Positions 12,698 through 53,249 of a stretch of 59,785 nt of DNA are shown piece by piece; position 1 is the first letter of the stretch; each line of letters begins with the position of its first letter. The stretch comes from Candidatus Bathyarchaeota archaeon (GTDB taxonomy: Archaea > Thermoproteota > Bathyarchaeia > Bathyarchaeales > Bathycorpusculaceae): assembly GCA_963827165.1 (NCBI GenBank), contig CAWGZR010000002.1:1-59785 (forward strand), given 5' to 3'. The notes under the pieces were generated by a model. That model was not told the DNA's origin. It searched no databases and saw nothing but the letters and a program-made list of their open reading frames with translations. Position numbers and translations under genes: made by a program.

Positions 12698-14947
12698 TTA
12701 GTATTTCGCATCTAGTTGTTTTTGGAGCTCTTTTATTTTTCGTTGTCTAGTTATGCTGCCTGCTCTTACCGCCAGAAAGACCCCTGATCCCGCTGCTGCA
12801 ATTATAATCACGAGTATGATGATTGTTTCCGTTATCTGCGAACTGTTGATTTCACTAACGCTGCCAGTTACAATGTTTACTTTCATTGTTAACGCTTGAC
12901 CTGTGTAGTCGATTGTTGCGTTTGTTGCTGGGTACCCTTCTTTGACAAATTTGAAGTTATATTCTCCCGTTATTGCGTTTTTGAAGGTGACGTACCCTGA
13001 TGAGTTTGTAACGTCGATTAATGCAGCCATTCCCGCAGGTTGGCTTGTTGAGGAAACCAAGGTGTTGCTTAGTGGTTGATTGTTTGCATCTTCAACTAGC
13101 CAAGTTATTGACCCTGTACTATTGGCTGTGGCTGTCGGGGTTAGGGTTGGAGTTGGCGTAATGGTTGGTGTTGGCGTCGGAGTTGCGGTAGCGTTGGGTG
13201 TTGGAGTGGGCGTCTGCGTGGGAGTGGGTGTTGGTGTTTGTGAAGGTGTTGGGGTTTGTGTTGGCGTTGGAGTTGGCGTAACAGCCGCCAAAACTGCAAG
13301 TTGCTCGGTGGCTTGGCCGCTAAAGTATCCGGTCTTGGCAACGTTCGCTGTAATAGCGCAATTTGATGCAGTGACCAAGTTTGGCGCTGTGAATGTTGAT
13401 TGGTAGGTTCCATTTCCAAAGTCTGTTGTGGTGCTGAATGTACCGCCGTTGTTTGATGAGAAGCTTACTGTTGCTCCGGATATTGGGATGCCATTGGCGA
13501 TTACTTGAGCTGTAATTGATGCGTAACCTGCACTGGCAACAGTTTGCGGGGTCGCTGTTTCTGTTATTTGCAGAGTAGGGTGGTCAATAAGATAGGTTGT
13601 TACTGTGCCTTGACCAGTAGTGTATCCTGCAGCTTGGGCTGTGATGGGGATTGACCCAGGAGCGTTAGTCACCGTTAAGATTGCTGTGGCTTGCGTATTG
13701 CCCGAGGGAATTGTCACTGTTGAACTGACTGTTCCTATCGTTGGGTTTTGTGAAAACAGATTGACACTTACGTCCTCTTCAAGGTTTTTTGCGGGTAGCC
13801 CTTGTGAGTCTTGAAGCTGCACAATAACAGCGGAATATGCTGCGTTATCGGCTGGAAGTGATGATGGTGCAACGTAGACAGCTAACTTTGGCGGAATAAA
13901 CTCTACTGTGCTTATTGACTGTGAGTCCGAACTCCAATCTGTTGCTGCTGCAACAATGGTTGTTGATCCAGCTGTATACGTAGAGTTGAAAGTGGCTACT
14001 GAGTAAGTTTGACCTGGTTCAATTTCTAAAGTCGAACCAATGTGCCCTATGTTTGTATCGGTTGAAATCAAATTGATGCCGACTACTGCAGACTCGCTTG
14101 CGATGTTTCCTGAACTATCCTGAAGTTCAACTGCAACTTGTGGATATGAGTTGTCGTCTGCCAGAATTGGGTTTGGTCCCACGAAGATCTTAAGATGTTT
14201 AGGACTAACTGGATTGATTGTTACACTTTTTGTTGTAATTGTCATCTGTCTAGATGCATATCCGTTTGCCAAAGTTGTGATGGTTGCGGCTCCTGGTGAG
14301 GTAGTTGTGAGGAAATTGGCTATTGCGTAAGTTTGCCCATATGGTATATTCACTGTAGGGTCAACAGTGCCAACACTGCTGTCCGAGCAGGATAATGTAA
14401 CGGTTACGCCATTTGGTGGTGCTCTTTGAGGTGATCCAGTTGAATCTTGTAATTGGATCATTATGGCTGGGTAGGTTCCTCCATCGGCCGGTAAGATTGA
14501 TGGAAATCCGTATATTGCTGTAGCCGACGGCAGTGGCGTGACTGTTGTTATGGTTGCTTGCTCCGTTGCGTAGCCTGTTGCGGAAACTGAGATTGTTGTG
14601 GTTCCTGGAGTTAGTGTTGTGTAAAAGTTTGCTGATGCGTAGGTTGCGTTTTTGAGTATAGTGATTGTCGGGTCTACTGTTCCAACATTGGTCAAAGAGG
14701 ACGATAGGCTTATAGTTGTATCTTGTAAGGCCCTAAAGGGTTGCCCGCTGGAATCGAGCAACTGAACGAAAACGCAGTTGTAAACATTGTTGTCAGCAAG
14801 CACGCTGGTTGGTGCAACATAAACATTAAGGACGGGATTACTTGCTGCAGCATGAGCAACGCTATTTAGGTTGAATGCTACAAACGCTGAAACTAATAAG
14901 ACGAAAACGATTGTTAAAGCTGCTACTTTCTTGGACATTTTCTTCAT
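12698..14947 (-). CDS. Cell-surface protein with tandem invasin/Ig-like domains, Pro-Thr linker and C-terminal TM
   Basis: Signal peptide; four repeats of P..L.AD...Y..V.VQL.DS.G.P; (TP)n linker at ~13135-13285; TM plus basic tail. Confidence 0.85.
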
Positions 14948-15318
14948 TCTTCCTTTAATTCTTCAATAGAGCCAGTTTTGTCTTCATTATCCTCTTTAGG
15001 TAACAAGTTTAGCACTCCAGTGTTTGCTTCCTGGCAAAGCGTACATGTAATATTTGATAATTCAATATGATAATGCCTAGCCGATTCTGCGCATTGCTTT
15101 ATTCGGCATTCACTAACTATCGGTATTTTGTTTTTCGCTTCATCGCGCAAAATGAAGAGGGCGCACTGTCCATTTACGGCAAACTGACAATTGGCTTTCT
15201 TTAACTCTCCAAAAAAAGTTGCGTTTGATAGTATCTCAACTAATGTCAAGACTTCTTGAGTCTTCTGTTCTTCGAGTTGGTCTATCCGCAAATGGAGTTC
15301 CTCTATTTGATTACCCAT
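14944..15318 (-). CDS. Hypothetical Cys-rich protein, translationally coupled to the Ig-domain gene
   Basis: 124 aa; N-terminal coiled coil, several Cys/His; stop overlaps the next start. Confidence 0.7.
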   Translation of the reverse strand: MGNQIEELHLRIDQLEEQKTQEVLTLVEILSNATFFGELKKANCQFAVNGQCALFILRDEAKNKIPIVSECRIKQCAESARHYHIELSNITCTLCQEANTGVLNLLPKEDNEDKTGSIEELKEE

Positions 15319-15356
15319 TTGTTATTTTTCTTCCAAGCGTTAATTACCGAAGTTGT

Positions 15357-15373
15357 CTTATATACTGCGAAAG
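15357..15373 (-). promoter_or_regulatory. TATA box with atypical upstream element (CTTTCGCAGTATATAAG)
   Basis: About 40 nt upstream of ATG 15318; matches the pilin and ATPase promoters. Confidence 0.65.
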
Positions 15374-15418
15374 GAATTTGGGATCGTGCGGGAGCGATTA
15401 CGATTTTTTCAAAAACAA

Positions 15419-16222
15419 TTAGATTTGTTTTGTTACAGTCAAGGCAAGAATAGCTGGCATGGAAGTTTTTGAAGATCCTTTCAGCTTTCTAATTCTCGCT
15501 TCATTTGTATACACGGTTCTAGCCGATATGTGGAATATTTCACCTATTTTTTCTTTCGAAATTTTTACTTTGTTGCTTTTGCAGGTATTGTAGAATGCGC
15601 CTGCTGCAAGACCAATTGGGTTTCCGCCCGATCTTTTTATTTTGCACAAAATTTCATCGGTTTTGAGAATTAGTTCTTTGTTTTCGGATATTTTGCCGGC
15701 ATATTCATGTAGGTAGTCGCTGGCTGTTTTTCTTTGGATTCTTAGCGGTTTTTTCTCGGCGTTTAAAGTTTTGTTGAGCAGCCACGTTTGCTTCATGACG
15801 GTTTTGCTGTCGAGGCTTAGCTGTTGGCTTATTTCTTTTATTGGCCGCATCTTGTTGTATTCTTTTAGTGTCAAGTGCATTAGGGCTGCTATTGTTGCTC
15901 GCTTGTTTTTTGAAAGTTTCTGTGATTTGGCTAATGCGTGGTTATGGTTTCTTATTGTGCGAGCTGCTTCTTCTCGGTATGGGTAATTAGGAATGTTTAG
16001 TTGGCAGGAGACTGCTCTTAATGTGGTTAGCCACTCTTTGAGTGTTTCTGAGTCTTCTTCATCCCAGTTTGAGTACCATGTCGGAGTCCACTGAGCAAAG
16101 CCCTTTACAATCGGCGTTTGATCTAAGACTAGTCCGCATCTGCTGCAGATTTTTTCTCCGTCTGGACCTTGTGGGAAGATTAATGCGCTGTTACATGTGT
16201 GGCTGTTCAGATTTTTCACCAA
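15419..16222 (-). CDS. tfb: Divergent transcription factor B (TFB/TFIIB) paralogue
   Basis: Zn ribbon (GEKICSRCGLVL), two cyclin repeats (GGNPIGLAAGAFY), C-terminal HTH; B-reader/linker largely absent. Confidence 0.85.
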   Translation of the reverse strand: MVKNLNSHTCNSALIFPQGPDGEKICSRCGLVLDQTPIVKGFAQWTPTWYSNWDEEDSETLKEWLTTLRAVSCQLNIPNYPYREEAARTIRNHNHALAKSQKLSKNKRATIAALMHLTLKEYNKMRPIKEISQQLSLDSKTVMKQTWLLNKTLNAEKKPLRIQRKTASDYLHEYAGKISENKELILKTDEILCKIKRSGGNPIGLAAGAFYNTCKSNKVKISKEKIGEIFHISARTVYTNEARIRKLKGSSKTSMPAILALTVTKQI

Positions 16223-16594
16223 TTGTTGCTTCTTTTTGATTCATCTAATTGAAATCCTATTGAATCATAACTCAAAGTGCTATTATTTGTTGCGAATAGT
16301 GTATTAATATCGGAAATTTATATTCTGAATTATATATTTTGAAATAAATATGCGGAGAATTTGTTTCCAGAAAGAACCAGTACCAAAAAATATCGAAAAA
16401 AGATGCAAATTTGAATTTTTGTTTTCCATGAGCGCGAAATCTTTGCGATCAGGGTTGAACTCAAAATGAAATGAATGAATATGATGCCGAGTTTGAGAAG
16501 ACACCCTGTTCTTGGCAGCATCAGCATTCAACGGGAACTATTTGTCGACAGATCTATGCGATAACTATCAAACCTAATACACGGGACGAAATTC

Positions 16595-16611
16595 GAAACG
16601 CAGTTTATAAG
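16595..16611 (+). promoter_or_regulatory. Pilin 1 promoter (GAAACGCAGTTTATAAG)
   Basis: TATA box followed by a leader with GGAGGTG RBS and ATG 16671. Confidence 0.7.
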
Positions 16612-16854
16612 GGAACTTCTTGAAGGGAATGTCAAATGGAAAGTTCAGCAGGGAGGTGTTTGATAAAAAAATGAATTTCAAAAGAATGATGAAAAACTCG
16701 AAAGCTATTTCACCAATTTTCGCTACCCTTATTCTTATTGCGATTGCAGTTATTGCCGGTGTGGTGGTTTACATGTTTACAAGCGGAACCTTAGCAACCA
16801 TGACAGCGGAGGAACAGCAGGACAAGAAAAAGTTACCGTGCAAGCAGCAAGCAT
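16606..16854 (+). repeat. Direct repeat copy 1 (~249 bp: TATA, 5'UTR and pilin N-terminus)
   Basis: Near-identical to 17554..17802. Confidence 0.95.
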
Positions 16855-17157
16855 TGTCGTTAACGACTTAAAGGTCTTACAAATAAAGTTTATCTTGAGC
16901 AAACAGGGCGGTCCAGCTGCAACTGTGAACAGCTTAATAATTAAAGACACTTCAGGAAATACTGTCGGTGTTATATCGGGCACAAACGCTTTTGGTAATG
17001 GCGTTAGTACCGTAGCCTTGACTTCTGGAATGCTGACTACTTCACTAGTACCACTCCAACAACGGGTCTAACTGTAGGCAGTTCATACACAATTACTGTA
17101 ACAACTGCAGCAGGCGGTAGTTTCGTTTCACCATCAGTCGTAGCAACTTCATCTTAA
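16671..17157 (+). CDS. Archaeal type IV pilin 1 (several indels in this sequence)
   Basis: Class III signal KNSKA/ISPIFATLILIAIAVIAG; ends ...YTITVTTAAGGSFVSPSVVATSS*; about 4 indels relative to pilin 2. Confidence 0.85.
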
Positions 17158-17542
17158 ATCAATGGGTTTTTCCACCCATAGCCTTTCTATTTTTACTTTA
17201 CAGGAAAACATCCGCTGTTAAAAATAGTTAATTTTTCTAATTAAAATAAATTAAATTCAACTAATGCATAGTCGAAAGGATGCGTAAAAAAGTAACAGAG
17301 AATATTTAAAAAAAATGGTCCCCAATGGTTTTGGCTCCTCGGTCTGATTTTTTTTCTCCTTTCAAAGTTTGTCATGTTCCAGACGTAGCAAAGTATTTCA
17401 ATGTGCTCTGAGAAATATGCCGCTATTTTAGGGCAGGCTATATCGAAGAAGGCCGTACACATTTTTGCTATTCATTAACTTTTTTGGAAATGGCAAGTTT
17501 TTGTTTTCTATAAACATCTTTATTCGTGATATATACTGGCGT

Positions 17543-17559
17543 GAAACACGGTATATAAG
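17543..17559 (+). promoter_or_regulatory. Pilin 2 promoter (GAAACACGGTATATAAG)
   Basis: Same spacing to ATG 17618 as in pilin 1. Confidence 0.7.
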
Positions 17560-17802
17560 GGAACTTCTTGAAGGGAATGTCAAATGGAAAGTTCATCAGG
17601 GAGGTGTTTGATAAAAAATGAATTTCAAAAGAATGATGAAAAATTCGAAAGCTATTTCACCAATTTTCGCTACCCTTATTCTTATTGCGATTGCAGTTAT
17701 TGCTGGTGTGGTGGTTTACATGTTTACAAGCGGAACCTTGGCAACCATGACTAGCGGAGGAACAGCAGGACAAGAAAAAGTTACCGTGCAAGCAGCAAGC
17801 AT
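17554..17802 (+). repeat. Direct repeat copy 2
   Basis: Near-identical to 16606..16854. Confidence 0.95.
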
Positions 17803-18101
17803 ATCTGCCGGCGGTAAAACAACAGTGTATCTTGAGCAGACAGGTGGCCCAGCGGCAACCGTGAACAGCATAATAATTAAAGAACTTCAGGAACCACAGT
17901 CGGTGTTATATCCGTGCACTGGTAGTTTAGCTCGCGAATGGTGGAACCGCAGGAAGCACCGTGGCCTTAACTTCAGGAACAATGTTCACTATTGTTGGTA
18001 CCACTCCATCAGGATTAGTTGCTGGCAGTTCATACTCAGTCACTGTTACCACTGCAGCGGGAGGAAGTTTCGTTTCATCCCAAGTAGTAGCAGTTACTTA
18101 A
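17618..18101 (+). CDS. Archaeal type IV pilin 2 (several indels in this sequence)
   Basis: Same N-terminus as pilin 1; ends ...YSVTVTTAAGGSFVSSQVVAVT*; about 3 indels in 17880-17935. Confidence 0.85.
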
Positions 18102-18716
18102 ACCCTTTGGGCTTTTTTCCCAATATTCCATTTTCTAACTTCAGCAAACATATTTTTTGGTCATTGTTTGTCAATTTTCCCTTCTGAAACAGGTCAATTT
18201 AACTATTGTCTCCAAAGAGACCAATGGTAAATAAAAACACTGCTAACATTTTTGCGGAACTAACCAAAATATCCCTGTGAAAGAATTAGAATCGAAAAAT
18301 GGTAAGTCGAACCACTTAAGCAATAGGTTTTCAGCGAGCCATTGATATTTAGAATAGGTCAAAATGTTTTTGATTCGTGTATTCCCTTAAGTTACTAAAC
18401 TTATCGCAAAAAGAAATTCCTATGAATTGACTGCTGCAAGTTTGAAGCTTGGATAGTGAATTTCGAAATAAAAAAAGGAACGTCGTCTGGTGTCAAATTG
18501 ATCGTCAAGTGCATGAGGATAATTTCCATTTCTAAAAAAACCTACTTTATTAATGAACTGTCGGAATGAACTGGCAGAAAGCGGTAGAATGCTGAGTACA
18601 GATCGAGAGTTGTCTGTGAAAACAGGGAATGAATTTCGAGTTTCCATTGTTTCTCTTAGGGTTAAGTCTATCTCAAGCTTGGCCTATCCAAAAATTAACC
18701 GGTGAGGAGTCAACAA

Positions 18717-19249
18717 ATGGTTAAACGCAAACATAACTTTAGGCCCTTTGGTAGGCGTGCTCTTAGTCCAATATTTGCCACAATGTTGTTAGCCGCAATC
18801 GTAATTGTTTTTGGCTCAGTCGCTTACTATTTTTCAAGCAATCTTACATCCACAGTAACAAACAATTATGCTAGCACCATGTCGAATAGTCAGCAAGCGG
18901 TTGCGGAGAGAGTGGGATTCGAATATGTGCAGCACAGTTCTTCGTCATTAACTGTTTACATAATTAATTGCGGAAGCTCCAATAACATACAAATCGACTC
19001 CGTGTTCATCTATGATTCAAACAATAACATTCAGGGAGATTATTCTGGTTCGCCAAGTCCAATTTCATATTTGTATCTATAGGCGGGAATGGCGCCTTAA
19101 TCAACGGGAACGGTAAAAGCCTTAACGTCGGACAGGAAGCATACTTTACCGTCACGTTAACTGGTTCCTCTCTAAACACTGGTTCTTCATACATTATTCA
19201 CCTTGTAACTAAAAGCGGGAGCAGTTTCAATTATGATTTCACGGCGTGA
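18717..19249 (+). CDS. Minor pilin-like protein; frameshift near 19075
   Basis: GRRA/LSPIFATMLLAAIVIV class III signal; continues in another frame ...SLNVGQEAYF...YIIHLVTKSGSSFNYDFTA*. Confidence 0.8.
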
Positions 19250-22200
19250 TTTTGGAAGGAACAGAAAAGGCATCGGCACAGTTTTCGGAATGGTATTTTT
19301 CATACTTATAGTCATGATTGTAATTGCAAGCCTTATGGTGATTCTAAACCAGAATACCGGTCTAGAACAAACCACAATCCAAGCAAAGCAGTTGGATTTG
19401 GATCGCTATACAGAACTTGAAACCGTATCAATCAATAACCCTGAAACAGCCGTATTAAATAACGTAGTCTATGTAAGCTGCTCAGTCTCGGACAATGGCA
19501 CGCTTCCGGTTGAATTGGATCGATTTTGGATTAGAGATGTAAATACAGGGACCGTCAATAATATAGCAGTAACTCCAAGCGTTACCCTGCAACCTGGAGC
19601 CAGCACTTATTATTTCAATTACCTTTCCATTGCTGGTTCATCGTATTCTGACCAGTTTATAATTTGGTTTGTTACAGCAAGAGGAAACAGCATCTCAGAC
19701 TATCCAAATATTAACAAATTTAATGGTATAATGTTAAGTGGATCATTCCCGGGAGTGGCTGACATGAACTCTACTTACCAAACTAACTCTACCCCCATGC
19801 AGTTGTCTCTTGTAACAACTCAACCTAATCAACTGATTTATGTAGTTGTATCTTATGACGATGGCAATACATTGTACACTCCTACCTCATCACCCAGCTT
19901 GACCTGGGCTTTGAGGGATGCGTCACAAACTACAGCCACCGCTCCATATTCGGGGGATAGTATTTTGAAAACCTTCTATGCTATTGATTCTTCAGTCGGT
20001 CTAGTAACGATCAGCATCCACTCAACTGCCGATGAATTAAGCGATTATTATTGTTCAGCACTAGCATTCGCAATTAGCAATGTAAACACTACTTCTCCAT
20101 TTGATGGTCCACCACTAGGTCAAGGGCCACAAACCTCCATAGGTGAATCTACTACGGTGCAAGATACAATCACTACTCATTACGCAAATGATATGATAAT
20201 AGGTGCCCTGGGAATCGACAATCTTAACCCTTCAATAACGCCGGGCGCAGGTTTCGCTCAAATTATGCCGGTGCAGAGTTCATACGGTGCCTCGGGAGAA
20301 GATAACGCTATGCCTAGATCCGTGTGGAGCGAATGGGCAATAATGAAGACACCTGTGAAAAACTTATCAGTAAATTGCTCTTTTACGTCATCGGAAAATT
20401 GGGCTGTAATTCTTGATGCTGTGAGATTGGTTGTGGTAGCTCCCCCCTCTCCAGTGGTTCTTTCCCCTACTATTGGTACAACTGGCCAGGTAGTTACTGT
20501 TTCAGGAACAGGTTTTGCGGCCAACTCTCAGCTTCAAGCTCTGTTTGATGCCACACCAATTCCTTTCAGCTTCACCACCGACGCCTCAGGCAATATCCCA
20601 TCTGGCGCCACCTTTACTGTCCCGCAAGGTGTGACACCTGGTTCTCACTTAGTCACCATCTACGACGGCAAGTACAATTATGGAAATGCCACTTTCACAG
20701 TCGTACCTTCAATCACAATAGTCAGCCCAGTGAGCGCAGCGGGCGTCGCTGGTTCAACTGTGACCATCTCAGGTTCCGCCTTTGCAGCTAATTCAACTTT
20801 GACTGCAACATTTGGCGGCGCCCCCGTAACAATAAGCGGGGTTAGCAGCACTAATTCCACCGGCCAATTTGTAAATGCGACCTTCACCGTTCCTTCACAG
20901 ACAGGCGGCAGTCAAAACCATAACATTTTCCGATTCCGCAATTCCAGCCCAAAACACTGCATCCATCACTTTTACCCTTAATCCAACAATCTCCATAAGC
21001 TCATCGACTGGCACTGTAGGATCAACAATCACAGTGTCGGGATCCAACTTTGCTGCCAGCTCAAAAATAACTGTGAAGTACGACGGGACAACATTGACGA
21101 CGAGTCCTGCAACAATAACAACTTCCGGTTCAGGTGCCATCCCTTCAGGCGTAACATTTACTATTCCTGCTTCAACAGCGGGCAATCATGCAATTACAGT
21201 TACAGATGCAAGCTCGAACGTTGGCTCTGCCTTTTACACCGTGACTCCAACAATTACCCTGAACCCAACAAGTGGCAACGTTGGCACATCAATTCTTGTT
21301 TCAGGAACAGGATTTGCAGGCTCATCAACAATTACAATAACCTATGATGGAGCTGTACAAATTTATTCAACTTCTAACAGCGTCGGCTCATTTAGTGCGT
21401 CATTTGCTGCTCCAGCTTCAAGTTCAGGTGTTCACACCATACAGACAACGGATGGAACCAACACTGGCGCTGCCACTTTTACCATAACGTCGCTCATCGT
21501 TTTGAATCCATCTTCAGGCATAGTTAGCTCGACCGTATCCGTTTCAGGTTCAGGCTTCACTGCTAATGCTCAAGTAACCATGACCTTCGGTGGTTCAGCG
21601 ATTGCTACAACACCCACGCCAGTTACAACGGGAAGCACCGGCTCTTTCAGTGCATCCTTTATTGTTCCCGCAGGTTCTATAACGGGTTCTATAGCAGGGG
21701 CAAAAACAATTCAGGCAAATGACGGCACAAACACGGCTTCTGCCGTATTCACTGTAATTCCAGCAGTCACCGTTAACCCAACAAGCGAAAACGTCGGCTC
21801 AACAATCACCGTTTCGGGAACAGGTTACGCCTCCTTAAGCCAAATGACAATTAAGTATGATGGGACAACTCAAACAACTTTGCCCGGAACAGTCACTTCA
21901 ACCAACTACGGCGCATTCAGTTGCACCTTCTTAGCGCCAGCTTCAGTCGCTGGGCTTCATACGGTATCCGCAACCGACGCCAGTACAAACACCGCGGCCG
22001 TCACATGCACTATTGTACCATCAATCACTCTTAACCCAACTTCTGGAGGTTACGGTTCAACTGATTACTATTTCGGGAGGCGGATTCGCTGCTTCCAAAA
22101 TCTATCACTGCCACCTTCAACGGATGCTCCTGTCACTCTAAGCGGCACAACAACTACAGGCGCCACCGGATCATTCACTGGCGCAACCTTCACTGTTCCA

Positions 22201-23958
22201 ATCTCAACAATAGGCGCACAGACCATTGTCGTCACTGACGCAAACTCGAACTCCGCATCCACCATCTTCACCGCAACTCCCGCAATTATCCTTCCTGCTC
22301 TCGGCGAATCAGGCACATCTATCTCTGTTACAGGCTATGCATTTGCGCCCAACTCAGCCTTAAAAGCAACCTTCAATGGATCTCCCCTTACCCTTACCGG
22401 CACAACAACCACGAGCGCCACAGGCTCTTTCAGTGGCTCAACCTTCATTGTTCCAACCATCTCGACGGGCCCAGAAACAGTTGTATTCTCCGACTCTGCA
22501 ACCCCAACTCCAAACACAGCCCAAGCCACCTTCACGGTTACAGTAGCGATAACAATAACCTCAAGTCAAGCTGGCGCAGGCTATATCCAAGTTGACGGCG
22601 TCGCTGTTACAACCCCCATCATCTTCCACTGGCTAACGGGCAACTCACATACAATATCAGCCCAATCTCCAGTGTCAGGCGGGACAGGCAAACAATATGT
22701 CTACACGAGCTGGAGCGATACTGGAGCACAAAGCCACACCTATGCAGTACCAAGCTCATCTGCAACTGTTACAGCTAGCTACAAAACACAATATCTACAA
22801 ACATTTGCTGGTTCTGGTCTTGCTGGTGATGCTACTGGGAACTTGGTTACTTTCACGGTTAGTGGTGGTTCGTATTCTGGTGCTACTAGTCCAATTGGCA
22901 TTTCTGGCGGTTCGATTTGGGTTGATAATGGTGCAACTGTCACCTATGCCTTTGTTAATCCTGTTACGAGCAGTGTAACTGGAAAGCAGTATCGGCTTAA
23001 CAGTGTTACCGGTTCAGCTTCCCCAATTACGGTTTCAGGTGCTAACACGTTAACAGGCAACTATGTGGTTCAATGGCAGGTAACATTTGCTTCTTCCGGA
23101 AGTGGAACAACAAATCCCTCGGGAACTAATGTTTGGGAAAATACAGGATCACTCTCGATATCTGCAACCCCAGGCACAAACTATCATTTCTCCTCTTGGA
23201 GCGCTACAACAGGAATAACAATTACGAGCTCAACATCTGCTTCGACAACAGCTACCATAGGCGCTTCTGGCACAATCACCGCAAACTTTGGGTTGAATCC
23301 TGCAATAGATGGTTCAGGAACAGGATCCGCCACTAGCGGAACCACATTCACAATATCTGCTTTCAGTACTTCAAATACTAACGATTTGATATATGTCTCA
23401 GTGACAAGTTACAACAGATATGTTAGCAGCATTTCAGGAACCGGCGGCCTAACCTTTGCATGTAGACAAAGTGCTGGCAATACTCTTACCTGGTCATATT
23501 CAAGCAACAATTACTACATTAGTACCTGGTACGTAGTCAAGCCTTCAACAGGATCAATAACAATAACTGTTACAATGTCCGGCTCTATAACCAGTGCAGC
23601 AGCAGTGGCATATGGTATCAGCAACGTTAACACGGTCTCTCCTTTCGACGGTGCCTACGCCACCGGTACTGGTACTGGAACATCAGCAACTGCTGCCAAA
23701 ACTACCTCTAATCCAAATGACATGATCATCGGCGCAGCAGGCGTTTCTAGTGGCACAAGTTCGTCCCCTGCACTCACTGTAGGCTCAGGTTTTACATCCG
23801 TTAACACGGCAACGCAGAACTCAGGAAGCTACCGCGTTGAGACCTCGGCTGAGTACCAGATATTGACTGCACCGCAAACCAACTTTGCGGTAGGCTACAC
23901 ATGGAGCGGTTCATATGGTTGGACAATGGTCGCCGACGCGATACAACCAGCCTCATAG
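19233..23958 (+). CDS. Giant (~1570 aa) pilin-signal adhesin with tandem IPT/TIG-like repeats; frameshift near 20915 and compensating pair near 22070-22110
   Basis: NRKG/IGTVFGMVFFILIV signal; repeated P.SG.VGS.ITVSG.GF...F.VP units; ORFs 19233..20981 and 20875..23958 join within one repeat. Confidence 0.85.
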
Positions 23959-24023: not shown

Positions 24024-25643
24024 TTGAAGCTTTGGAAACCAAAGGGTAAGCAGGAGCAGCAGCAAAAAACAGTGGATAGTTCCTCAGTTATAGATGAGGA
24101 TATCCCTGGCCCAACCGTAGAGGCTTCAACAGAAACTTCTGGGGTATCAGACGTCTCAGAATCATATAAGGAACATTATCCTCTCTTAATTCCATTCTCT
24201 TATGCGGCTATAGTTGAAAGCGCGAGAAACGATGTAAAATACTCGGTTTTGGAACCAACATTAACTGAATCAGACAAGCAGTCTTTGGCTGAGCTGAAAA
24301 ACATTCTTTGGGACGAGCTTACCGTTAATATAAAGAATCTAAAGGATCCTCAGGCAGCAGAAGATTTCTTAAAGTTTAAAGTTTTAGAAACAGCTGTGAA
24401 ATATCACATCAGCTTGGACAGCAAAACATTAGGCAAATATCAGTATTTTGTTGTCAGAGATTTTTTGGGCTACGGAAAAATTGATGGCATAATGCGAGAT
24501 GAGAACATTGAAGACGTCTCATGCGATGGCATTAATTCTCCAGTATTCGTTTGGCATCGCAAATACGAATCAATACCGTCAAACATAGTTTTTGAAACGT
24601 CACAAGAACTGGAAAACTTTGTTTTCAAACTCGCCTATCTATGTGGCAGGCACATTTCCATTGCGCAGCCAATCCTTGATGGAACGTTAAATAATGGTAG
24701 TCGAGCCCAAGTAACTTACGGAACAGAAGTCACCCCTAAGGGCAGCACCTTTACAATAAGGAAATTCAAAAAGAGCCCACTCACCATCACAGACCTAATA
24801 ATTTACAAGGCACTATCAACAGAAATTGCAGCTTATTACTGGTTCATAATAGAAAACAGGCACTCAGTTATGATTGGCGGAGACATTGGTGGAGGAAAAA
24901 CCTCGATGCTAAACGCCATCAGTCTATTCATTAGACCAACACTAAAGATAGTCAGTATAGAGGACACACAGGAAATACGTCTACCTCACCAAAACTGGGA
25001 AATGATGGTAACCAGGCAAGGCTTAGGCACCGGCGCAGGGGCAGTTGGAGAAGCTGGAATCGGCAGTATAAGCATGTTTGACCTACTTCGAGCAGCACTT
25101 AGGCAAAGACCTGACTTTATCATAGTGGGTGAAATTCGAGGTGAAGAAGCTTACGCATTATTCCAAGCCATGGCGACGGGACACTTAGGCTTAACCACCA
25201 TACACGCTGAGCATGTCCAAGGAGTCTTGCACCGACTAACAACTAAACCCATGAACATTCCGCACACTCAAGTCGAAAACTTGAATGCAATTTCAATCGT
25301 TCGAAGACTTGTCGTAAACAACGTTTCTTTAAGACGAACCATAAGCGTTTCAGAAATGGTCGGTTGGAATAAAGAAAAACAGGATTTTGAAATTCAAGAT
25401 ATATTCAAGTGGGATGCCGAAAAAGACATTTACGTAAAAGTTGGCAGGAGCCCACTTTTAGATAAAATAGCTGCCCAATGGGGGTATTCACCGGATGAAA
25501 TTGATGAGGAGCTAAAGATTAGACAAACTATCCTCGACTACATGATTAGAAAGCATGTGCGATCATACGAAGACGTTTCCAAATTGGTTCTAGATTACTT
25601 CTCAAACCCCGAACAGGTATACAGGAAAGCAAAAGTGAGCTAA
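24024..25643 (+). CDS. Type IV pilus/type II-IV secretion assembly ATPase (FlaI/TadA-like)
   Basis: IEDVSCDG, FTIRKF, Walker A GDIGGGKTS, SIEDT, LRQRPD, Walker B IIVGEIRG and TGH motifs. Confidence 0.95.
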   Translation: MKLWKPKGKQEQQQKTVDSSSVIDEDIPGPTVEASTETSGVSDVSESYKEHYPLLIPFSYAAIVESARNDVKYSVLEPTLTESDKQSLAELKNILWDELTVNIKNLKDPQAAEDFLKFKVLETAVKYHISLDSKTLGKYQYFVVRDFLGYGKIDGIMRDENIEDVSCDGINSPVFVWHRKYESIPSNIVFETSQELENFVFKLAYLCGRHISIAQPILDGTLNNGSRAQVTYGTEVTPKGSTFTIRKFKKSPLTITDLIIYKALSTEIAAYYWFIIENRHSVMIGGDIGGGKTSMLNAISLFIRPTLKIVSIEDTQEIRLPHQNWEMMVTRQGLGTGAGAVGEAGIGSISMFDLLRAALRQRPDFIIVGEIRGEEAYALFQAMATGHLGLTTIHAEHVQGVLHRLTTKPMNIPHTQVENLNAISIVRRLVVNNVSLRRTISVSEMVGWNKEKQDFEIQDIFKWDAEKDIYVKVGRSPLLDKIAAQWGYSPDEIDEELKIRQTILDYMIRKHVRSYEDVSKLVLDYFSNPEQVYRKAKVS

Positions 25644-25648
25644 ATAAA

Positions 25649-26530
25649 ATGAAGTTCGAACCTTGGACCTTAGCTTACCAGAAATTTGGGAAAAGATTGG
25701 AAAGGATTTATCCTCAATTTCAGGAGCTACATATTCAGCTTAAGAAGGGCGGCGTGCTAATTGCATTTAAGGCATATGTTGCCTTTATGGTGCTGCTTTC
25801 GATAGTTGCGTTTGTTGTAGCGCTTGGGGCATCCTTTGTGATTTTGCCTCTTTTGTTGAGGATCCCGTACCTATCTGGAATGAATTTTGTATTTAGTTTG
25901 TCAGCTGCATCTGTTGTGGCTTTGGTGACATTAATGGTTATGTATCTTTATCCAGGTATGAAAGCCAGTAACAGAAATGGGCCGATTGACAGAAATTTAC
26001 CGTACATAGCGAACTTTCTTACTCTCCTCTCAAGTTCAAATGTTCCACCAAGTGTCATTTTTGAATCGGTAGCAAAGATTGATACCCTAAAAGAGGCACG
26101 CTTAGAATTCAGCAACATCATTAGAGATATCCAAATCTTTGGTCAGGATTTGCTCACTTCAATTCTAGATAATGCCAAACTAACACCAAATGATCCCCTT
26201 CGAGAGCTGCTTATCGGTTACGTGGCTACGGTAAAAACTGGCGGAAATCCAACTGAATACCTCAAAGTTACATCTGGTCAAATAACTCAAGAAAGAATGA
26301 CTAAATTAGATTCAATGTTAGAATCGCTCTCTGCGATGGCAGAAATATACATCATGCTACTAGTCGCTGCTCCCCTGCTTTTCTCAGTTCTCTTCGTAAC
26401 GCTAGGCATGATAGGTAGCGGCGCAGTATTCGGCATGAGCATGGGAACCCTTCTTTATCTGATGGTTTACCTTGGAATCCCAATACTTGGCGGAACACTA
26501 ATTGTGATAATGTCCTCATTGGAGAAGTGA
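25649..26530 (+). CDS. Pilus platform membrane protein (TadC/FlaJ, T2SSF)
   Basis: IDRNLPY, FGQDLL and TGG motifs; TM helices; follows the ATPase. Confidence 0.9.
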   Translation: MKFEPWTLAYQKFGKRLERIYPQFQELHIQLKKGGVLIAFKAYVAFMVLLSIVAFVVALGASFVILPLLLRIPYLSGMNFVFSLSAASVVALVTLMVMYLYPGMKASNRNGPIDRNLPYIANFLTLLSSSNVPPSVIFESVAKIDTLKEARLEFSNIIRDIQIFGQDLLTSILDNAKLTPNDPLRELLIGYVATVKTGGNPTEYLKVTSGQITQERMTKLDSMLESLSAMAEIYIMLLVAAPLLFSVLFVTLGMIGSGAVFGMSMGTLLYLMVYLGIPILGGTLIVIMSSLEK

Positions 26531-27360
26531 CCACAATGAAGATGACCAACAAAACAATAAAACGGATGCAAATAATCTCAGCTATATCAGCAGTCATTTT
26601 CTTTGTGGTAGCCCTAGTATTCTATCTCACATCGCCAACTTTAGATTACATGATGGTCATTGCGATTTCGATTGGCGTAGTTCCTCCCAGCATAGGACAA
26701 GTAATACACAACAAATGGCGACTAAAAATTGAAAAAGCAATGCCTGAATTCTTAAGAGACCTAGCAACCGCCCAACGAACAGGTATACCCTTACAAATAG
26801 CCTTAGAACACGCTTCAAAACGAATGTATGGGCCATTAACTGACGAGCTCAAAATCCTTGTCGCACACATGAGTTGGGGCATGAACTTTAACGAAGCTCT
26901 AACAGAATTCGCTAATCGCTTGGAGTTACCTTTAGTCTCAAAAGCAACAGTTCTAATTAACGAAGCCGGAAAACATGGCGGGGACTTATGCGATATTTTC
27001 AACTCCACGGCAAAATACCTAGAGAACATGAATTCATGGAGTGAAAAAAGAAGAGTACAAACATTTCCTTACATAGCTATATTCTACTTTTCCGTTTTCA
27101 TGTTCTTGTTCATCATTATTGTAATTTCAAATATGATGTTTGCTCCTTTAGCTCACACAACCACAGGCACATCTTTCATAAAACCAATCTTAACCCAAGC
27201 CCAATCACGAAGATTATTCCTCCATGCTTCACTACTTGAAGCTTTGTTTGGTGGTCTCATAGCCGGAAAAATAAATGAAGACTCTTTTCTAGACGGGCTA
27301 AAACATGTGGCGATACTGGCAATTGCTACTGGAATAGCATTTTATCTATTCCTGCCTTAA
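26527..27360 (+). CDS. Second pilus platform membrane protein (TadC/FlaJ, T2SSF)
   Basis: IEKAMPEFLRDL, YGPLTDEL, SWG, GLIAGKI and GLKH motifs. Confidence 0.9.
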   Translation: MTTMKMTNKTIKRMQIISAISAVIFFVVALVFYLTSPTLDYMMVIAISIGVVPPSIGQVIHNKWRLKIEKAMPEFLRDLATAQRTGIPLQIALEHASKRMYGPLTDELKILVAHMSWGMNFNEALTEFANRLELPLVSKATVLINEAGKHGGDLCDIFNSTAKYLENMNSWSEKRRVQTFPYIAIFYFSVFMFLFIIIVISNMMFAPLAHTTTGTSFIKPILTQAQSRRLFLHASLLEALFGGLIAGKINEDSFLDGLKHVAILAIATGIAFYLFLP

Positions 27361-27416: not shown

Positions 27417-28628
27417 ATGAAAAAAAACCTGCTCGGCGATACCAAAATGGAAAGTGATAACGAACAAGCAGCGGTGAGCAAAATGTCGACAGAAAAGCCA
27501 GAAGCAGTTTTGACCTTAGGTTTAGATGACAAGATAGAACTTGAAAGAAAGGAAGCATACATTGAACCCAAAACACGCCAACTCCTAAGAGAACTAATTC
27601 AATGCGAAGAGAAATATCAAATAATCCCAAAATATAATCCAGGAGTAGGTTTCGTTTATCAAATAACGGAACAAAAAACAAATGCTCCTGAAACCCTCAA
27701 TATTTCAGAAGACTTCCTGGAGAATCTTGCAAGGCTAGATATACTTCACAAAGAGTTTTATGACTCGGTATCAGTTTGTCCAACTTGTCATTCGCCGATA
27801 ATAACGCTTCATAATCGGTGTCCCAAATGCAAAAGTCACAATATTGATAAAACAAGCCTAACCGAACATATCCTGTGCGGCTTCATTGATCAAAGAAACA
27901 ACTATGTTAACAACCGTTGCCCAAAATGCGGAGAGCGCTTGGTAGAAGGGCAATTTAGGAATATGGGCCGCTGGTTCGTTTGTAGAGATTGCAGTGAAAG
28001 GTTCGAGGATCCTGAATACGATGTAACCTGCCGAAGCTGCGGTAAAGGTTTCTTAATTAAGGAATCGCAACTAACAGAAATACCAAAGTTTTCTTTAAAC
28101 CTGAACAGGAAAAAAGAGATAAGACAGAACGTCGCCAGTTTGGAAAGCTTTAGAGAACTCTTGGCAGATTTGGGCTTTAGCGTTGAAATTCCGGGGTTGG
28201 CGATGGGTCAAAAGAGTGGAATGCAACACCAATTCAGCCTCATTGCTAAAAAACAAGTCAATGGCCAAGAAATAAATGTAGCTCTTGATCTCGCAGTTAG
28301 CGAACCAGAAGTTTCTTCTTCGCCGCTCATTCTCTATATCTACAAAACATCAGAAGTGAAAGTTGATATCCCGATTTTCGTCGCAATGCCTGTTCTAAAC
28401 GAAACAGCAAAGAAGATTGCTCAGGGTCATGAGATTCTACTCATAGAAGGATCACCTGACGAAAAAGAAGTAATAGAGAATATAAAATCTGAAATTGAAT
28501 CGCGAATCGACGCGAAATTAGTTGAACCAGGGATAAAGGAAAAACCGAAAAACAACGATGGACCGAGAAACTCGTTTATGGGTAAATTCGGGAAAATAGC
28601 TGATTTTGGAAAAAAATCAAAGAACTAG
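27417..28628 (+). CDS. TackOD1-like multi-Zn-ribbon protein with C-terminal restriction-endonuclease-like domain
   Basis: CPTC, CPKC, HILCG, CPKC, CRDC and CRSC motifs; then GQKSGMQHQFSLIA. Confidence 0.7.
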   Translation: MKKNLLGDTKMESDNEQAAVSKMSTEKPEAVLTLGLDDKIELERKEAYIEPKTRQLLRELIQCEEKYQIIPKYNPGVGFVYQITEQKTNAPETLNISEDFLENLARLDILHKEFYDSVSVCPTCHSPIITLHNRCPKCKSHNIDKTSLTEHILCGFIDQRNNYVNNRCPKCGERLVEGQFRNMGRWFVCRDCSERFEDPEYDVTCRSCGKGFLIKESQLTEIPKFSLNLNRKKEIRQNVASLESFRELLADLGFSVEIPGLAMGQKSGMQHQFSLIAKKQVNGQEINVALDLAVSEPEVSSSPLILYIYKTSEVKVDIPIFVAMPVLNETAKKIAQGHEILLIEGSPDEKEVIENIKSEIESRIDAKLVEPGIKEKPKNNDGPRNSFMGKFGKIADFGKKSKN

Positions 28629-52250: not shown

Positions 52251-53249
52251 ATGGAGTTAGAAAATATGAGTACAACCCAAATTAATGTACCTGAAGATGT
52301 ACAAAAAACTAATCAGCACTTAGTTGAGAAGTGCCCAGAATGCGCAAGCAAAAATTTGGTTCATGACTATGACTCGGGCGAAACCATCTGTGGTGACTGC
52401 GGTCTTGTTTTGTATGAGCAGATGATGGATAAGGGCCCAGAGTGGCGTGCGTTTACTGCAGAAGAGAAAACCTCGAGAAGTCGCGTCGGCATGCCCACAT
52501 CATATTCAATTCATGATAAAGGATTATCTACTGCTATTAGCCAAGTTGATAGAGATGCGTTTGGAAGAAAACTACCATTAGCCACTAGGTTGCAGATGTG
52601 GCGTCTTAGGAAATGGCAAATACGCAGTCGAGTACACTCATCCATCGACCGAAATTTGGCACAAGCAATGGCTGAACTTGAACGTTTATCCAGCAAAGTT
52701 TCCATCTCACCGCCAATAAGAGAGAAAGCAGCCGTCGTTTACAGAAAAGCGCTGGACAAAGGCTTAGTCCGTGGAAGGTCAATCAACGCCATCGCCGCAG
52801 CCTCACTTTATGCTGCTTGCCGAAAAAGCGGATCACCCAGGACTCTTCGCGAAGTGGCCGAGGCTAGTCTTGTTGATAGGAAAGATGTTGCAAGATGCTA
52901 CAGGCTGCTTCTACAAGAGCTTGATTTTCATATGCCCCTCTCTGACCCAATGACGTATGTCTCAAAAATTGCAGAGAAAACAGGAATATCGGGCAAAACA
53001 CAAGGCGCAGCAATAGCAATACTTAGGATAGCTAAGCAAAAAAGAGTTTCAGCAGGAAAAGACCCTATGGGTTTAGCTGCCGCCGCACTCTATATCGCAT
53101 GCTTACAGAATAGCGAAAAACAAACGCAAAAAGACATCTCTGAGGCAGCTGGAGTCACCGAAGTTACAGTTAGAAACAGATACAAGGACCTAATGAAACG
53201 GCTGCACCTTGAAACACCTGATAAGAAACTTGTTCCAAGTTTTCTTTGA
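52251..53249 (+). CDS. tfb: Transcription initiation factor IIB (canonical)
   Basis: CPEC/CGDC ribbon, GPEWRAF B-reader, RLRKWQ, GRS, GKDP, VTEVTVRNRY. Confidence 0.97.
   Translation: MELENMSTTQINVPEDVQKTNQHLVEKCPECASKNLVHDYDSGETICGDCGLVLYEQMMDKGPEWRAFTAEEKTSRSRVGMPTSYSIHDKGLSTAISQVDRDAFGRKLPLATRLQMWRLRKWQIRSRVHSSIDRNLAQAMAELERLSSKVSISPPIREKAAVVYRKALDKGLVRGRSINAIAAASLYAACRKSGSPRTLREVAEASLVDRKDVARCYRLLLQELDFHMPLSDPMTYVSKIAEKTGISGKTQGAAIAILRIAKQKRVSAGKDPMGLAAAALYIACLQNSEKQTQKDISEAAGVTEVTVRNRYKDLMKRLHLETPDKKLVPSFL

Follow-up and report, generated by a model that had tools for sequence, protein, structure and literature searches.

A TFB-derived protein with a shortened reader and linker as candidate initiation factor of an accessory pilus and adhesin cluster in Bathyarchaeia

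In archaeal type IV pilus (T4P) loci, the commonest predicted regulators are TFIIB homologues that combine a zinc finger with a pair of cyclin domains (arCOG01981), according to the survey by Makarova, Koonin and Albers 2016 (PMC4858521). Whether the multiple TFBs of archaea act like sigma factors, each with its own promoter class, has so far been hard to settle, and paralogue-specific promoter signatures are usually faint. In Pyrococcus furiosus TFB1, the B-reader comprises a helix (residues 40-47, with W44), a loop (48-58) and a strand (59-64), and the B-linker a strand (71-76) and a helix (84-98); TFB2 of the same organism, in which reader and linker are divergent, still initiates transcription, opens DNA poorly and is partly rescued by TFE (PMC13502027, in the excerpt used). 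Here, we describe a TFB-like factor (TFBL) encoded beside pilus genes in a 59,785-nucleotide stretch of DNA from Candidatus Bathyarchaeota archaeon (assembly GCA_963827165.1, contig CAWGZR010000002.1, positions 1 to 59,785; hereafter the window). One conserved cluster unites this highly derived TFB paralogue with its presumptive regulon, the pilins and an adhesin operon, and with a sharp, locus-restricted motif that flanks the TATA box.

We propose that TFBL may be the dedicated, sigma-like initiation factor of an accessory pilus and adhesin cluster in Bathyarchaeia, a reading that draws on sequence comparison and to which we give a rough probability of 0.45. That TFBL is a functional, TFB-derived regulator dedicated to this cluster is, in our judgement, highly probable. 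Its ancestry, architecture, selection, linkage and co-occurrence and the promoter motif are observed; that it reads the motif, binds TBP and RNA polymerase, and activates rather than represses transcription is inferred. The gene and the parts of its product are as follows.

15419..16222, reverse strand: TFBL gene, an open reading frame (ORF) for 267 residues with a TTG start and a GTG one codon on.
16127..16204, reverse strand: zinc ribbon, S-H-T-C ... C-S-R-C-G-L-V (residues 7-32), aligned with CPEC...CGDCGLV of canonical TFB; low model confidence.
16049..16126, reverse strand: Trp-rich linker with PTW (PEW in the family); predicted local distance difference test (pLDDT) below 50 for residues 35-48.
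15758..16048, reverse strand: first cyclin repeat (residues 59-155), from five AlphaFold2 helices and the alignment to 1ais_B.
15467..15724, reverse strand: second cyclin repeat (residues 167-252), from five AlphaFold2 helices.
15500..15559, reverse strand: rewired helix-turn-helix SKEKIGEIFHISARTVYTNE (residues 222-241), from BLASTP, profile alignments and the family pattern.

The database copy of TFBL (P0001) has 266 residues. TFBL of the window shares 24% identity with the canonical TFB there (52251-53249; BLASTP, E 2e-8). Alignment of a 25-sequence TFBL family profile to 15 canonical TFBs with hhalign extends the homology over ribbon and core, pairing residues 6-252 with 27-322 over 232 columns (probability 99.9, E 3.4e-32), and in hmmsearch the family profile matches human TFIIB at 5e-7 and Pyrococcus woesei TFB at 4e-6. 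These profile methods leave no doubt about ancestry: judged by them, TFBL is derived from TFB, as an earlier note made from the DNA letters of the window had proposed in calling it a TFB paralogue. The core of the zinc ribbon, G-E-x-I-C-x-x-C-G-L-V, is invariant or nearly so across the 25 sequences.

The predicted structure agrees with that note on a further point, the retention of both cyclin repeats. The AlphaFold2 model has a mean pLDDT of 77, is poor over residues 1-50 and shows five helices each in residues 59-154 and 167-252. Its best Foldseek match is the P. woesei TFB core 1ais_B (E 1.8e-6), to which VIA-align fits 183 of 193 residues at Z 14.4; the root-mean-square deviation (rmsd) of 11.1 is this large because the angle between the repeats differs in the free model. 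Another structure of the same core with TBP and DNA, 1d3u_B, gives Z 13.7, and the second repeat alone matches yeast TFIIB (chain 5fmf_P) at Z 11.9 with an rmsd of 1.8 over 88 residues. Helical repeats carry a high background Z and cyclins reach 12.6 against 14.4 for TFIIB; it is the fold that indicates a double cyclin and the sequence that indicates TFB.

This near-match of cyclins to TFIIB would suit a different role, in which TFBL is a cyclin-fold protein with a structural or regulatory function in pilus assembly and not a transcription factor. Scores below the thresholds of the TFB-family models, given further on, would fit such a role too, and a repurposed T4P-like system has been proposed for the TFIIB-homologue-bearing 4D group of Pyrobaculum and Thermoproteus (PMC4858521, PMC13705601, as far as the excerpts of both go). 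We nevertheless regard a non-transcriptional role as highly improbable, given that the sequence holds ties specific to TFB, namely the GE-IC-xCGLV signature of the ribbon, the PEW and a helix-turn-helix at the TFB position. TFBL has neither a signal peptide nor a membrane segment in its sequence, and the locus-specific, TATA-centred motif described below is what a TFB-type factor would read.

As a TFB-type factor, TFBL departs from the canonical form in three places, the first being the region between ribbon and core. In the hhalign comparison, 58 canonical residues (about 73-100, 103-115 and 123-139) have no counterpart in TFBL. Two islands survive: PEW, which is PTW at residues 47-49 of the window protein and pairs with canonical PEW 63-65, and LKEW 61-64, which pairs with canonical LRKW 119-122 and continues directly into the first cyclin helix; the first repeat opens with ETLKEWL, the counterpart of the RLRKW end of the B-linker helix. 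Mapped on the TFB1 boundaries, the parts missing from TFBL are the loop and strand of the B-reader and, from the B-linker, the strand with a portion of the helix; its PEW/PTW corresponds to the conserved Trp of the B-reader helix. The deletion of B-reader and B-linker announced in the earlier note was thus real in its 58 residues and overstated in its extent, with the PEW of the reader helix and the LKEW of the linker helix still in place. What that note described as a short Trp-rich stretch in place of the long segment proved to be a conserved feature: the linker is nearly invariant, and 108 of 112 assessable homologues have the pattern P-x-W-x-S-N-[WYF].

The second departure is the first zinc knuckle, where S7-H8-T9-C10 of TFBL aligns with C28-P29-E30-C31 of canonical TFB. 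Among the best 120 of 349 homologues, this knuckle is CxxC in 95, xHxC in 15 and of another kind in 2, and in 8 the N-terminus is too short for it to be read. The HTC knuckle noted earlier is therefore present in the window protein and is the state of a minority sub-lineage (15/120), not a trait of the family. A His stands next to the lost Cys in all 15 Cys-less forms compared with 18 of 95 CxxC forms, counts that come from related sequences and carry no statistical test, and the residue at the lost position varies (S, D, R, H, Y or N). This looks like repeated loss of the first Cys on a C-H-x-C background, with the His as a likely substitute ligand. An assembly error as the source of the SHTC knuckle was rejected, as P0002-P0004 and others carry the same state.

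The third departure is the recognition helix. The canonical helix-turn-helix TQKDISEAAGVTEVTVRNRY pairs without gaps with SKEKIGEIFHISARTVYTNE in both HMMER and hhalign, whereas BLASTP inserts a three-residue gap; the profile alignments thus reproduce the ungapped pairing from which the rewiring had been read, and the new helix, I-S-x-R-T-V-Y-x-N-E, is conserved across the family. A canonical helix of the type that reads the TFB-recognition element (BRE), T-E-V-T-V-R-N-R-Y, is replaced by S-A-R-T-V-Y-T-N-E, which includes the changes of V to R235 and of R to Y238. All 25 sequences share R235, T236, V237 and N240, conservation of Y238 and of E241 is at least 90%, and the pattern [IV][SPT]xRTVxxN[ES] is present in 100 of 112 assessable homologues. 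The canonical positions replaced by R235 and Y238 are, we assume, base- or BRE-contacting in TFB/TFIIB.

A word-indexed search returned 349 TFBL homologues, of which the best 120 are 62-100% identical and 235-304 residues long; those with names are Bathyarchaeia entries labelled 'hypothetical protein' or, from JGI, 'TFIIB/Brf1'. An exhaustive search of 50%-identity representatives gave one full-length sequence and fragments, followed by ordinary TFBs at E 5.7e-9 and worse. A quick maximum-likelihood IQ-TREE analysis of 60 rows groups the family in a single clade (SH-aLRT 100), whose inner branches measure 0.03-0.15 and whose stem measures 1.62 substitutions per site; the tree has many long branches and does not settle the position of this clade among TFBs, and we claim no donor lineage. 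Ribbon and core are also joined by short linkers in several other archaeal TFB-like proteins of 257-262 residues (P0168, P0171, P0163, P0152 and P0159), some of them with degenerate first knuckles, and it seems that TFB paralogues have been shortened on several occasions.

The family is under purifying selection. The median pairwise ratio of nonsynonymous to synonymous substitution rates (dN/dS; Nei-Gojobori, 30 coding sequences) is 0.17, taken over the 194 of 435 pairs with 0.05<dS<1.5. By part, it is 0.22 in the ribbon, 0.16 in the linker, 0.10 in repeat 1 and 0.18 in repeat 2, and the inter-repeat loop alone is higher, at 0.62. A decaying, pseudogene-like paralogue was rejected on this evidence, and in two public soil runs related strains have contigs that span the TFBL gene with 29-32 substitutions and no indel. 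The distribution is patchy: of 401 genomes sampled from the class, 11 have TFBL, that of the window included, with 7 of 40 in its genus and single TFBL-bearing genomes in each of two other families. The source genome holds a single copy of the TFBL family, two TBP genes (C3:164238-164753 and C12:90082-90597) and five canonical TFBs, namely that of the window on contig C2 and others at C5:120963-121511, C11:176812-177363, C3:158668-159219 and C3:280731-281279; four of these five form a tight, recent cluster in the tree.

Linkage to pilus genes was surveyed in 32 related loci from Bathyarchaeia metagenome-assembled genomes (MAGs), with samples named peat, bog, palsa and others, all counts being limited by 10-kb flanks and contig ends. 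The most constant neighbour is a gene for a small protein, small124.

14944..15318, reverse strand: small124, a Cys/His-rich protein of 124 residues, its stop overlapping the start of the surface-protein gene.

This gene lies directly downstream of TFBL on the same strand in 30/32 loci and is followed by an Ig-repeat, membrane-anchored surface protein in 29/32. The pilus genes are placed divergently upstream, or downstream, of this three-gene cassette, with class-III-signal type IV pilins within 10 kb in 24/32 loci, IPT/TIG proteins in 25/32, a FlaI/PilB-type ATPase in 16/32, a split platform protein in 10/32 and a TackOD1 protein in 7/32. In a sample of 61 genomes of the genus, TFBL and small124 have identical distributions, each in 11 genomes, one of which has two copies of both, and an ATPase orthologue of at least 79% identity is present in all 11. 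The earlier note had called for a neighbourhood survey and a dN/dS comparison, with unlinked orthologues or relaxed selection as the outcomes that would speak against it; the surveyed TFBL orthologues are linked to pilus loci, and selection on them is purifying, not relaxed.

The promoters of the locus share a motif, which we derived from aligned upstream DNA of orthologous genes, in loci whose synonymous sites are largely saturated. Common to the pilin and small124 promoters is AC-N3-G-TWTATAAG-NN-AACT, with a common core of G-T-W-TATWAR-NN-AAC(T), preceded at five to six bases by (A/T)C. In pilin promoters the aligned form is a.ACat.GTTTATAAGc.AACt..tggAAta, the TATA lies ~65 nt ahead of the ATG, and the ribosome site is GGAGGTG. 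The small124 gene has its own promoter, tTttCTcAGTATATAAG..AACTt...cAATTAA..c.TGGATG, in which the TATA lies 41-48 nt before the ATG, and ATACCTAGTTTATTAATAAAC is the form at the operon of the third pilin and the TIG proteins. In the window the motif occurs at four sites.

15352..15364, reverse strand: TATATAAGACAAC, about 44 nt upstream of the small124 gene.
16604..16616, forward strand: TTTATAAGGGAAC, upstream of pilin gene 1.
17552..17564, forward strand: TATATAAGGGAAC, upstream of pilin gene 2.
18546..18558, forward strand: TTTATTAATGAAC, upstream of the third pilin and TIG operon.

These are all of the window matches to the strict pattern TWTATWARNNAAC; the four lie within 15352-18558, each upstream of a gene, and two of them belong to duplicated pilin genes. 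Shuffling gives an expectation of 0.40 for the window, and 0 of 100 shuffles reach four. The whole 3.13-Mb genome has 14 matches, with none within 10 kb of its three other ATPase paralogues. Across the 32 loci there are 70 matches in 555 kb, ~28x the genome density. A match lies no more than 200 nt upstream of the start in 43 of 55 pilin genes and 25 of 30 small124 genes, compared with 0 of 30 TFBL genes and 1 of 139 other genes of the loci. A G at -1 is found in 57 of 71 motif sites against 24% of the generic TATA-like sites of the genome, which prefer A at -4/-3; this set (173 sites before ATG-started ORFs of at least 150 residues) is crude and serves as background only.

TFBL itself has a promoter of another kind, in which, in other loci, a conserved element distinct from the motif, ATGTGAATTCTGAGTTCTcAAGT, directly precedes TTATAAG. 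It was seen in L020-L044, about 50-75 nt upstream of TFBL, and is a candidate site for control of TFBL.

Three more genomes of the genus have the ATPase orthologue without the TFBL and small124 pair. In G430 the contig begins inside the locus, and in G437 the ATPase lies on a fragment at the end of a contig. G422 has the whole locus on one contig of 71.5 kb, and both genes are genuinely missing from it; this locus has no strict motif in 27.5 kb, and its pilin promoter reads AAACGTGTTTTATAAACAAGT, with AGT replacing AAC. The related locus without the factor is thus also without the motif.

In crystal structures of TFB/TFIIB with TBP and DNA, the second cyclin repeat uses its helix-turn-helix to read the major groove immediately before the TATA box, and the first repeat contacts DNA just downstream of it. 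The two conserved flanks of the motif coincide with these contact sites. The conserved rewiring of the recognition helix and the position of the flanks at the contact sites therefore make a private TFB, acting with TBP, the most economical reading. The proposal of altered DNA specificity in the earlier note gains from the same two observations, as conserved R235 and Y238 at presumed contacts and a motif on both flanks of the TATA box suggest it.

If TFBL is such a private initiation factor, its two cyclin repeats would sit on the TBP-bound TATA of the pilin promoters and of the promoter of the small124/Ig-repeat surface-protein operon. The rewired helix-turn-helix of repeat 2 would read the upstream flank AC-N3-G, repeat 1 would lie over the downstream flank NN-AACT, and the zinc ribbon (H/C-x-C...C-x2-C) would recruit RNA polymerase. 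The ~25 residues between ribbon and core could, we think, span the polymerase surface and would be unable to place a reader loop in the active-site cleft. With both loop and strand of the B-reader gone, as well as most of the B-linker, DNA opening would have to rely on something else, and candidates are TFE, the PEW/LKEW remnants or an AT-rich start region; the different promoter-opening mechanism put forward in the earlier note thus has the standing of a hypothesis. In effect, TFBL would work like sigma-28 as a switch for late pilus genes and would itself be expressed from its differently built promoter. A stronger form, in which TFBL is a natural minimal TFB that with TBP reads the bipartite flanks and initiates without reader loop and linker strand, possibly aided by TFE or the obligate small124 neighbour, strikes us as rather unlikely. 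Were it true, archaea would have a sigma-like, promoter-class-specific factor with a readable promoter code, and DNA opening would not strictly depend on the B-reader loop or the B-linker strand.

Several points weigh against an initiation factor that reads this motif. TFBL falls below the cut-offs of all three TFB-family models, with 20.7 bits and one repeat detected for the Pfam TFIIB repeat (PF00382, cut-off 23.6), 19.6 bits for the zinc ribbon (PF08271, cut-off 29) and 42.2 bits for NCBIfam NF001658, far below its cut-off of 384; the canonical TFB of the window scores 137.6, 62.5 and 424 bits, respectively. The window protein lacks the first zinc Cys and has three Cys and the adjacent His. 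The assignment of flanks to repeats is carried over from the crystal structures of TFB/TFIIB with TBP and DNA, and the control by G422 is a single case. The element ATGTGAATTCTGAGTTCTcAAGT is degenerate in the window (16240-16340). The GT...AC of the motif core is a short inverted repeat, which would also suit a dimeric regulator. Nothing separates assignment of the motif to TFBL from assignment to small124, with which TFBL strictly co-occurs, or to some other factor. Finally, a protein without reader and linker could equally be an inert occupant of the promoter, that is, a repressor.

As a promoter-specific repressor or placeholder, TFBL would occupy TBP-TATA wherever a promoter bears the motif. 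Archaeal repressors usually act at the TATA box, with which the motif overlaps, and a pilus locus that is accessory, being present in 11 of 61 genomes of the genus, is probably tightly controlled. Repression would also suit the deletion of parts that canonical TFB needs for DNA opening, according to hhalign and the excerpted text of PMC13502027. A pure competitor, however, needs neither a polymerase-recruiting ribbon nor a PEW, and the parts that hold them are both under purifying selection (0.22 and 0.16); the His in place in 15/15 losses of the first Cys would argue for maintained metal binding. In G422 the pilus genes persist, TFBL is absent and the AAC is gone, which in this one case fits the loss of an activator together with its promoter element better than the loss of a repressor. 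We consider repression unlikely.

Alternatively, small124 or another factor could read the motif, leaving TFBL as an adaptor to TBP and RNA polymerase or as a TFB3-like co-activator beside canonical TFB. The two genes co-occur strictly and are adjacent, and their families are of similar size, with 349 homologues for TFBL and 368 for small124. The protein has six Cys and two His that are invariant, lysine-rich tails in many members and a predicted long N-terminal helix that would suit dimerization, for which the dyad character of the motif would provide a match, and the motif in its own promoter would suit autoregulation. Having that promoter and an overlap with the surface-protein gene, on the other hand, suggests that small124 acts there, in folding or export, rather than with TFBL. 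Searches of Pfam, the ESM Atlas and PDB sequences gave no known family or structure and hence no DNA-binding family or fold for small124, the AlphaFold2 model of which is unreliable (mean pLDDT 56); the flank positions of the motif do not covary beyond the fixed GT...AC, and TFBL retains a conserved helix-turn-helix of its own. A reader other than TFBL is, on balance, distinctly unlikely.

The operon of the third pilin and the TIG proteins has, in most loci, a perfectly palindromic promoter, (A)GTTTATTAATAAAC(T), which so matches the motif on both strands; the window site at 18542-18560 reads CTTTATTAATGAAC in its place. A hairpin or cruciform with covarying arms was considered and dropped, as column shuffles left one marginal mirrored pair (8/1000) beyond the fixed GT...AC.

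The other genes of the locus in the window, up to its end at the TackOD1-domain protein, are as follows.

12698..14947, reverse strand: surface protein of 749 residues (Pfam).
16671..17071, forward strand: type IV pilin gene 1, with a class III signal-peptide N-terminus as in pilin 2.
17618..18187, forward strand: type IV pilin gene 2 (arch_flag_Nterm 34.2 bits, cut-off 20; tblastn).
18702..19082, forward strand: third pilin, with a weak UpsA/UpsB likeness below cut-off; in 24/32 loci.
19233-20981 and 20875-23958, forward strand: two large IPT/TIG-domain proteins (Pfam).
24024-25643, forward strand: FlaI/PilB-type ATPase (Pfam, NCBIfam).
25649-26530 and 26527-27360, forward strand: two half-size platform proteins (Pfam, NCBIfam).
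27417..28628, forward strand: TackOD1-domain protein with a double zinc ribbon (Pfam, 85 bits); end of the locus.

The surface protein consists of a signal peptide, Ig-like (Invasin_D3/Big_1) repeats, a Pro/Thr linker, a CarboxypepD_reg domain and a C-terminal membrane anchor, and the IPT/TIG proteins are likely pilus-associated adhesins. Both of the first two pilin genes run over two frames in the window. Pilin gene 1 is split into 16620/16671-16871 and 16838-17071, and contigs of related strains in three public runs have an extra A behind 16807. In pilin gene 2, likeness to orthologues is confined to about the first 95 residues, and one low-depth contig has three indels at 17883-17932. Judged from these comparisons, the pilin frameshifts are strain-specific or homopolymer assembly errors and not a trait of the family. 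The two IPT/TIG ORFs overlap by 107 nt and, given the pilin indels, might be one gene split by a frameshift. The pilins at 18702-19082 and 17618-17900 reach 32 and 29 bits with the models of Sulfolobus UpsA/UpsB (cut-off 130), Ups being the Sulfolobus pilus system under TFB3 control. The TackOD1 ('thaumarchaeal output domain 1') protein is kept in the longer loci and may be a signalling input to the pilus system.

Two oddities were met among the related loci. In G395 (C1:2220190-2231642), one of the 11 TFBL-bearing genomes of the genus, TFBL has two stops and the neighbouring ATPase is fragmented with many stops, so that this locus is either wholly decaying or from an error-prone assembly. The archaeal cassette also occurs on short contigs (L019 and L044; DPLR01000222.1 and DPLR01000442.1) of a MAG labelled 'Cytophagales bacterium', and these are most likely mis-binned archaeal DNA.

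That TFIIB homologues occur in archaeal pilus loci has been known since 2016. New here is the locus-specific promoter signature, and the added value would be a clean pairing of factor and promoter. A full-text literature search, supplements aside, found no account of a Bathyarchaeial pilus-linked TFB, its deletion, its partner gene or its promoter motif. With the proposal, two unannotated gene families from uncultured Bathyarchaeia of peat and soil receive a role, and a small set of recombinant proteins and short DNA probes would allow a direct test of the question it raises about dedicated TFBs.

With canonical archaeal TFB (P. woesei TFB and P. furiosus TFB1), TFBL shares the zinc ribbon, the PEW, the two cyclin repeats and the helix-turn-helix that ends repeat 2. 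It differs in its missing 58 reader and linker residues, its changed recognition helix, its sub-threshold scores and its status as an accessory gene (11/401 genomes of the class) tied to one gene cluster. The TFIIB homologues of T4P loci, with which we compare it by their description, share the zinc finger, the two cyclin domains and the setting within a pilus locus; the consulted part of PMC4858521, supplementary tables aside, treats this association in general and does not mention Bathyarchaeia, the deletion, the 124-residue partner or the promoter motif.

Among derived paralogues, P. furiosus TFB2 has divergent reader and linker sequences (PMC13502027) and is linked to heat shock (PMC6101591), as the excerpts of these papers have it, whereas TFBL has lost about 58 residues outright and is linked to a pilus locus. 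Sulfolobus TFB3 is likewise a truncated TFB paralogue, without a B-finger, that controls the Ups pilus among other genes (PMC6101591, PMC6101594, in part). The earlier note had set TFBL apart from TFB3, and the comparison agrees: TFBL keeps both cyclin repeats and the helix-turn-helix, which TFB3 lacks according to the excerpt of PMC6101591, and is encoded in the locus that it presumably controls. The arCOG05559 variant of Pyrobaculum and Thermoproteus (T4P subclade 4D) shares one operon with a T4P-type ATPase and a membrane protein; as described in the part of PMC4858521 used here, it has a single cyclin domain, a locus without pilins and a link to RPB8, in contrast to the two repeats and the complete pilus locus of TFBL. 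If our preferred explanation of a dedicated initiation factor holds, TFBL would resemble FliA/sigma-28, from general knowledge of that factor, in pairing a dedicated factor with a private promoter signature on the structural genes of one organelle. The protein family and the promoter logic are different, and the likeness is one of analogy, not membership.

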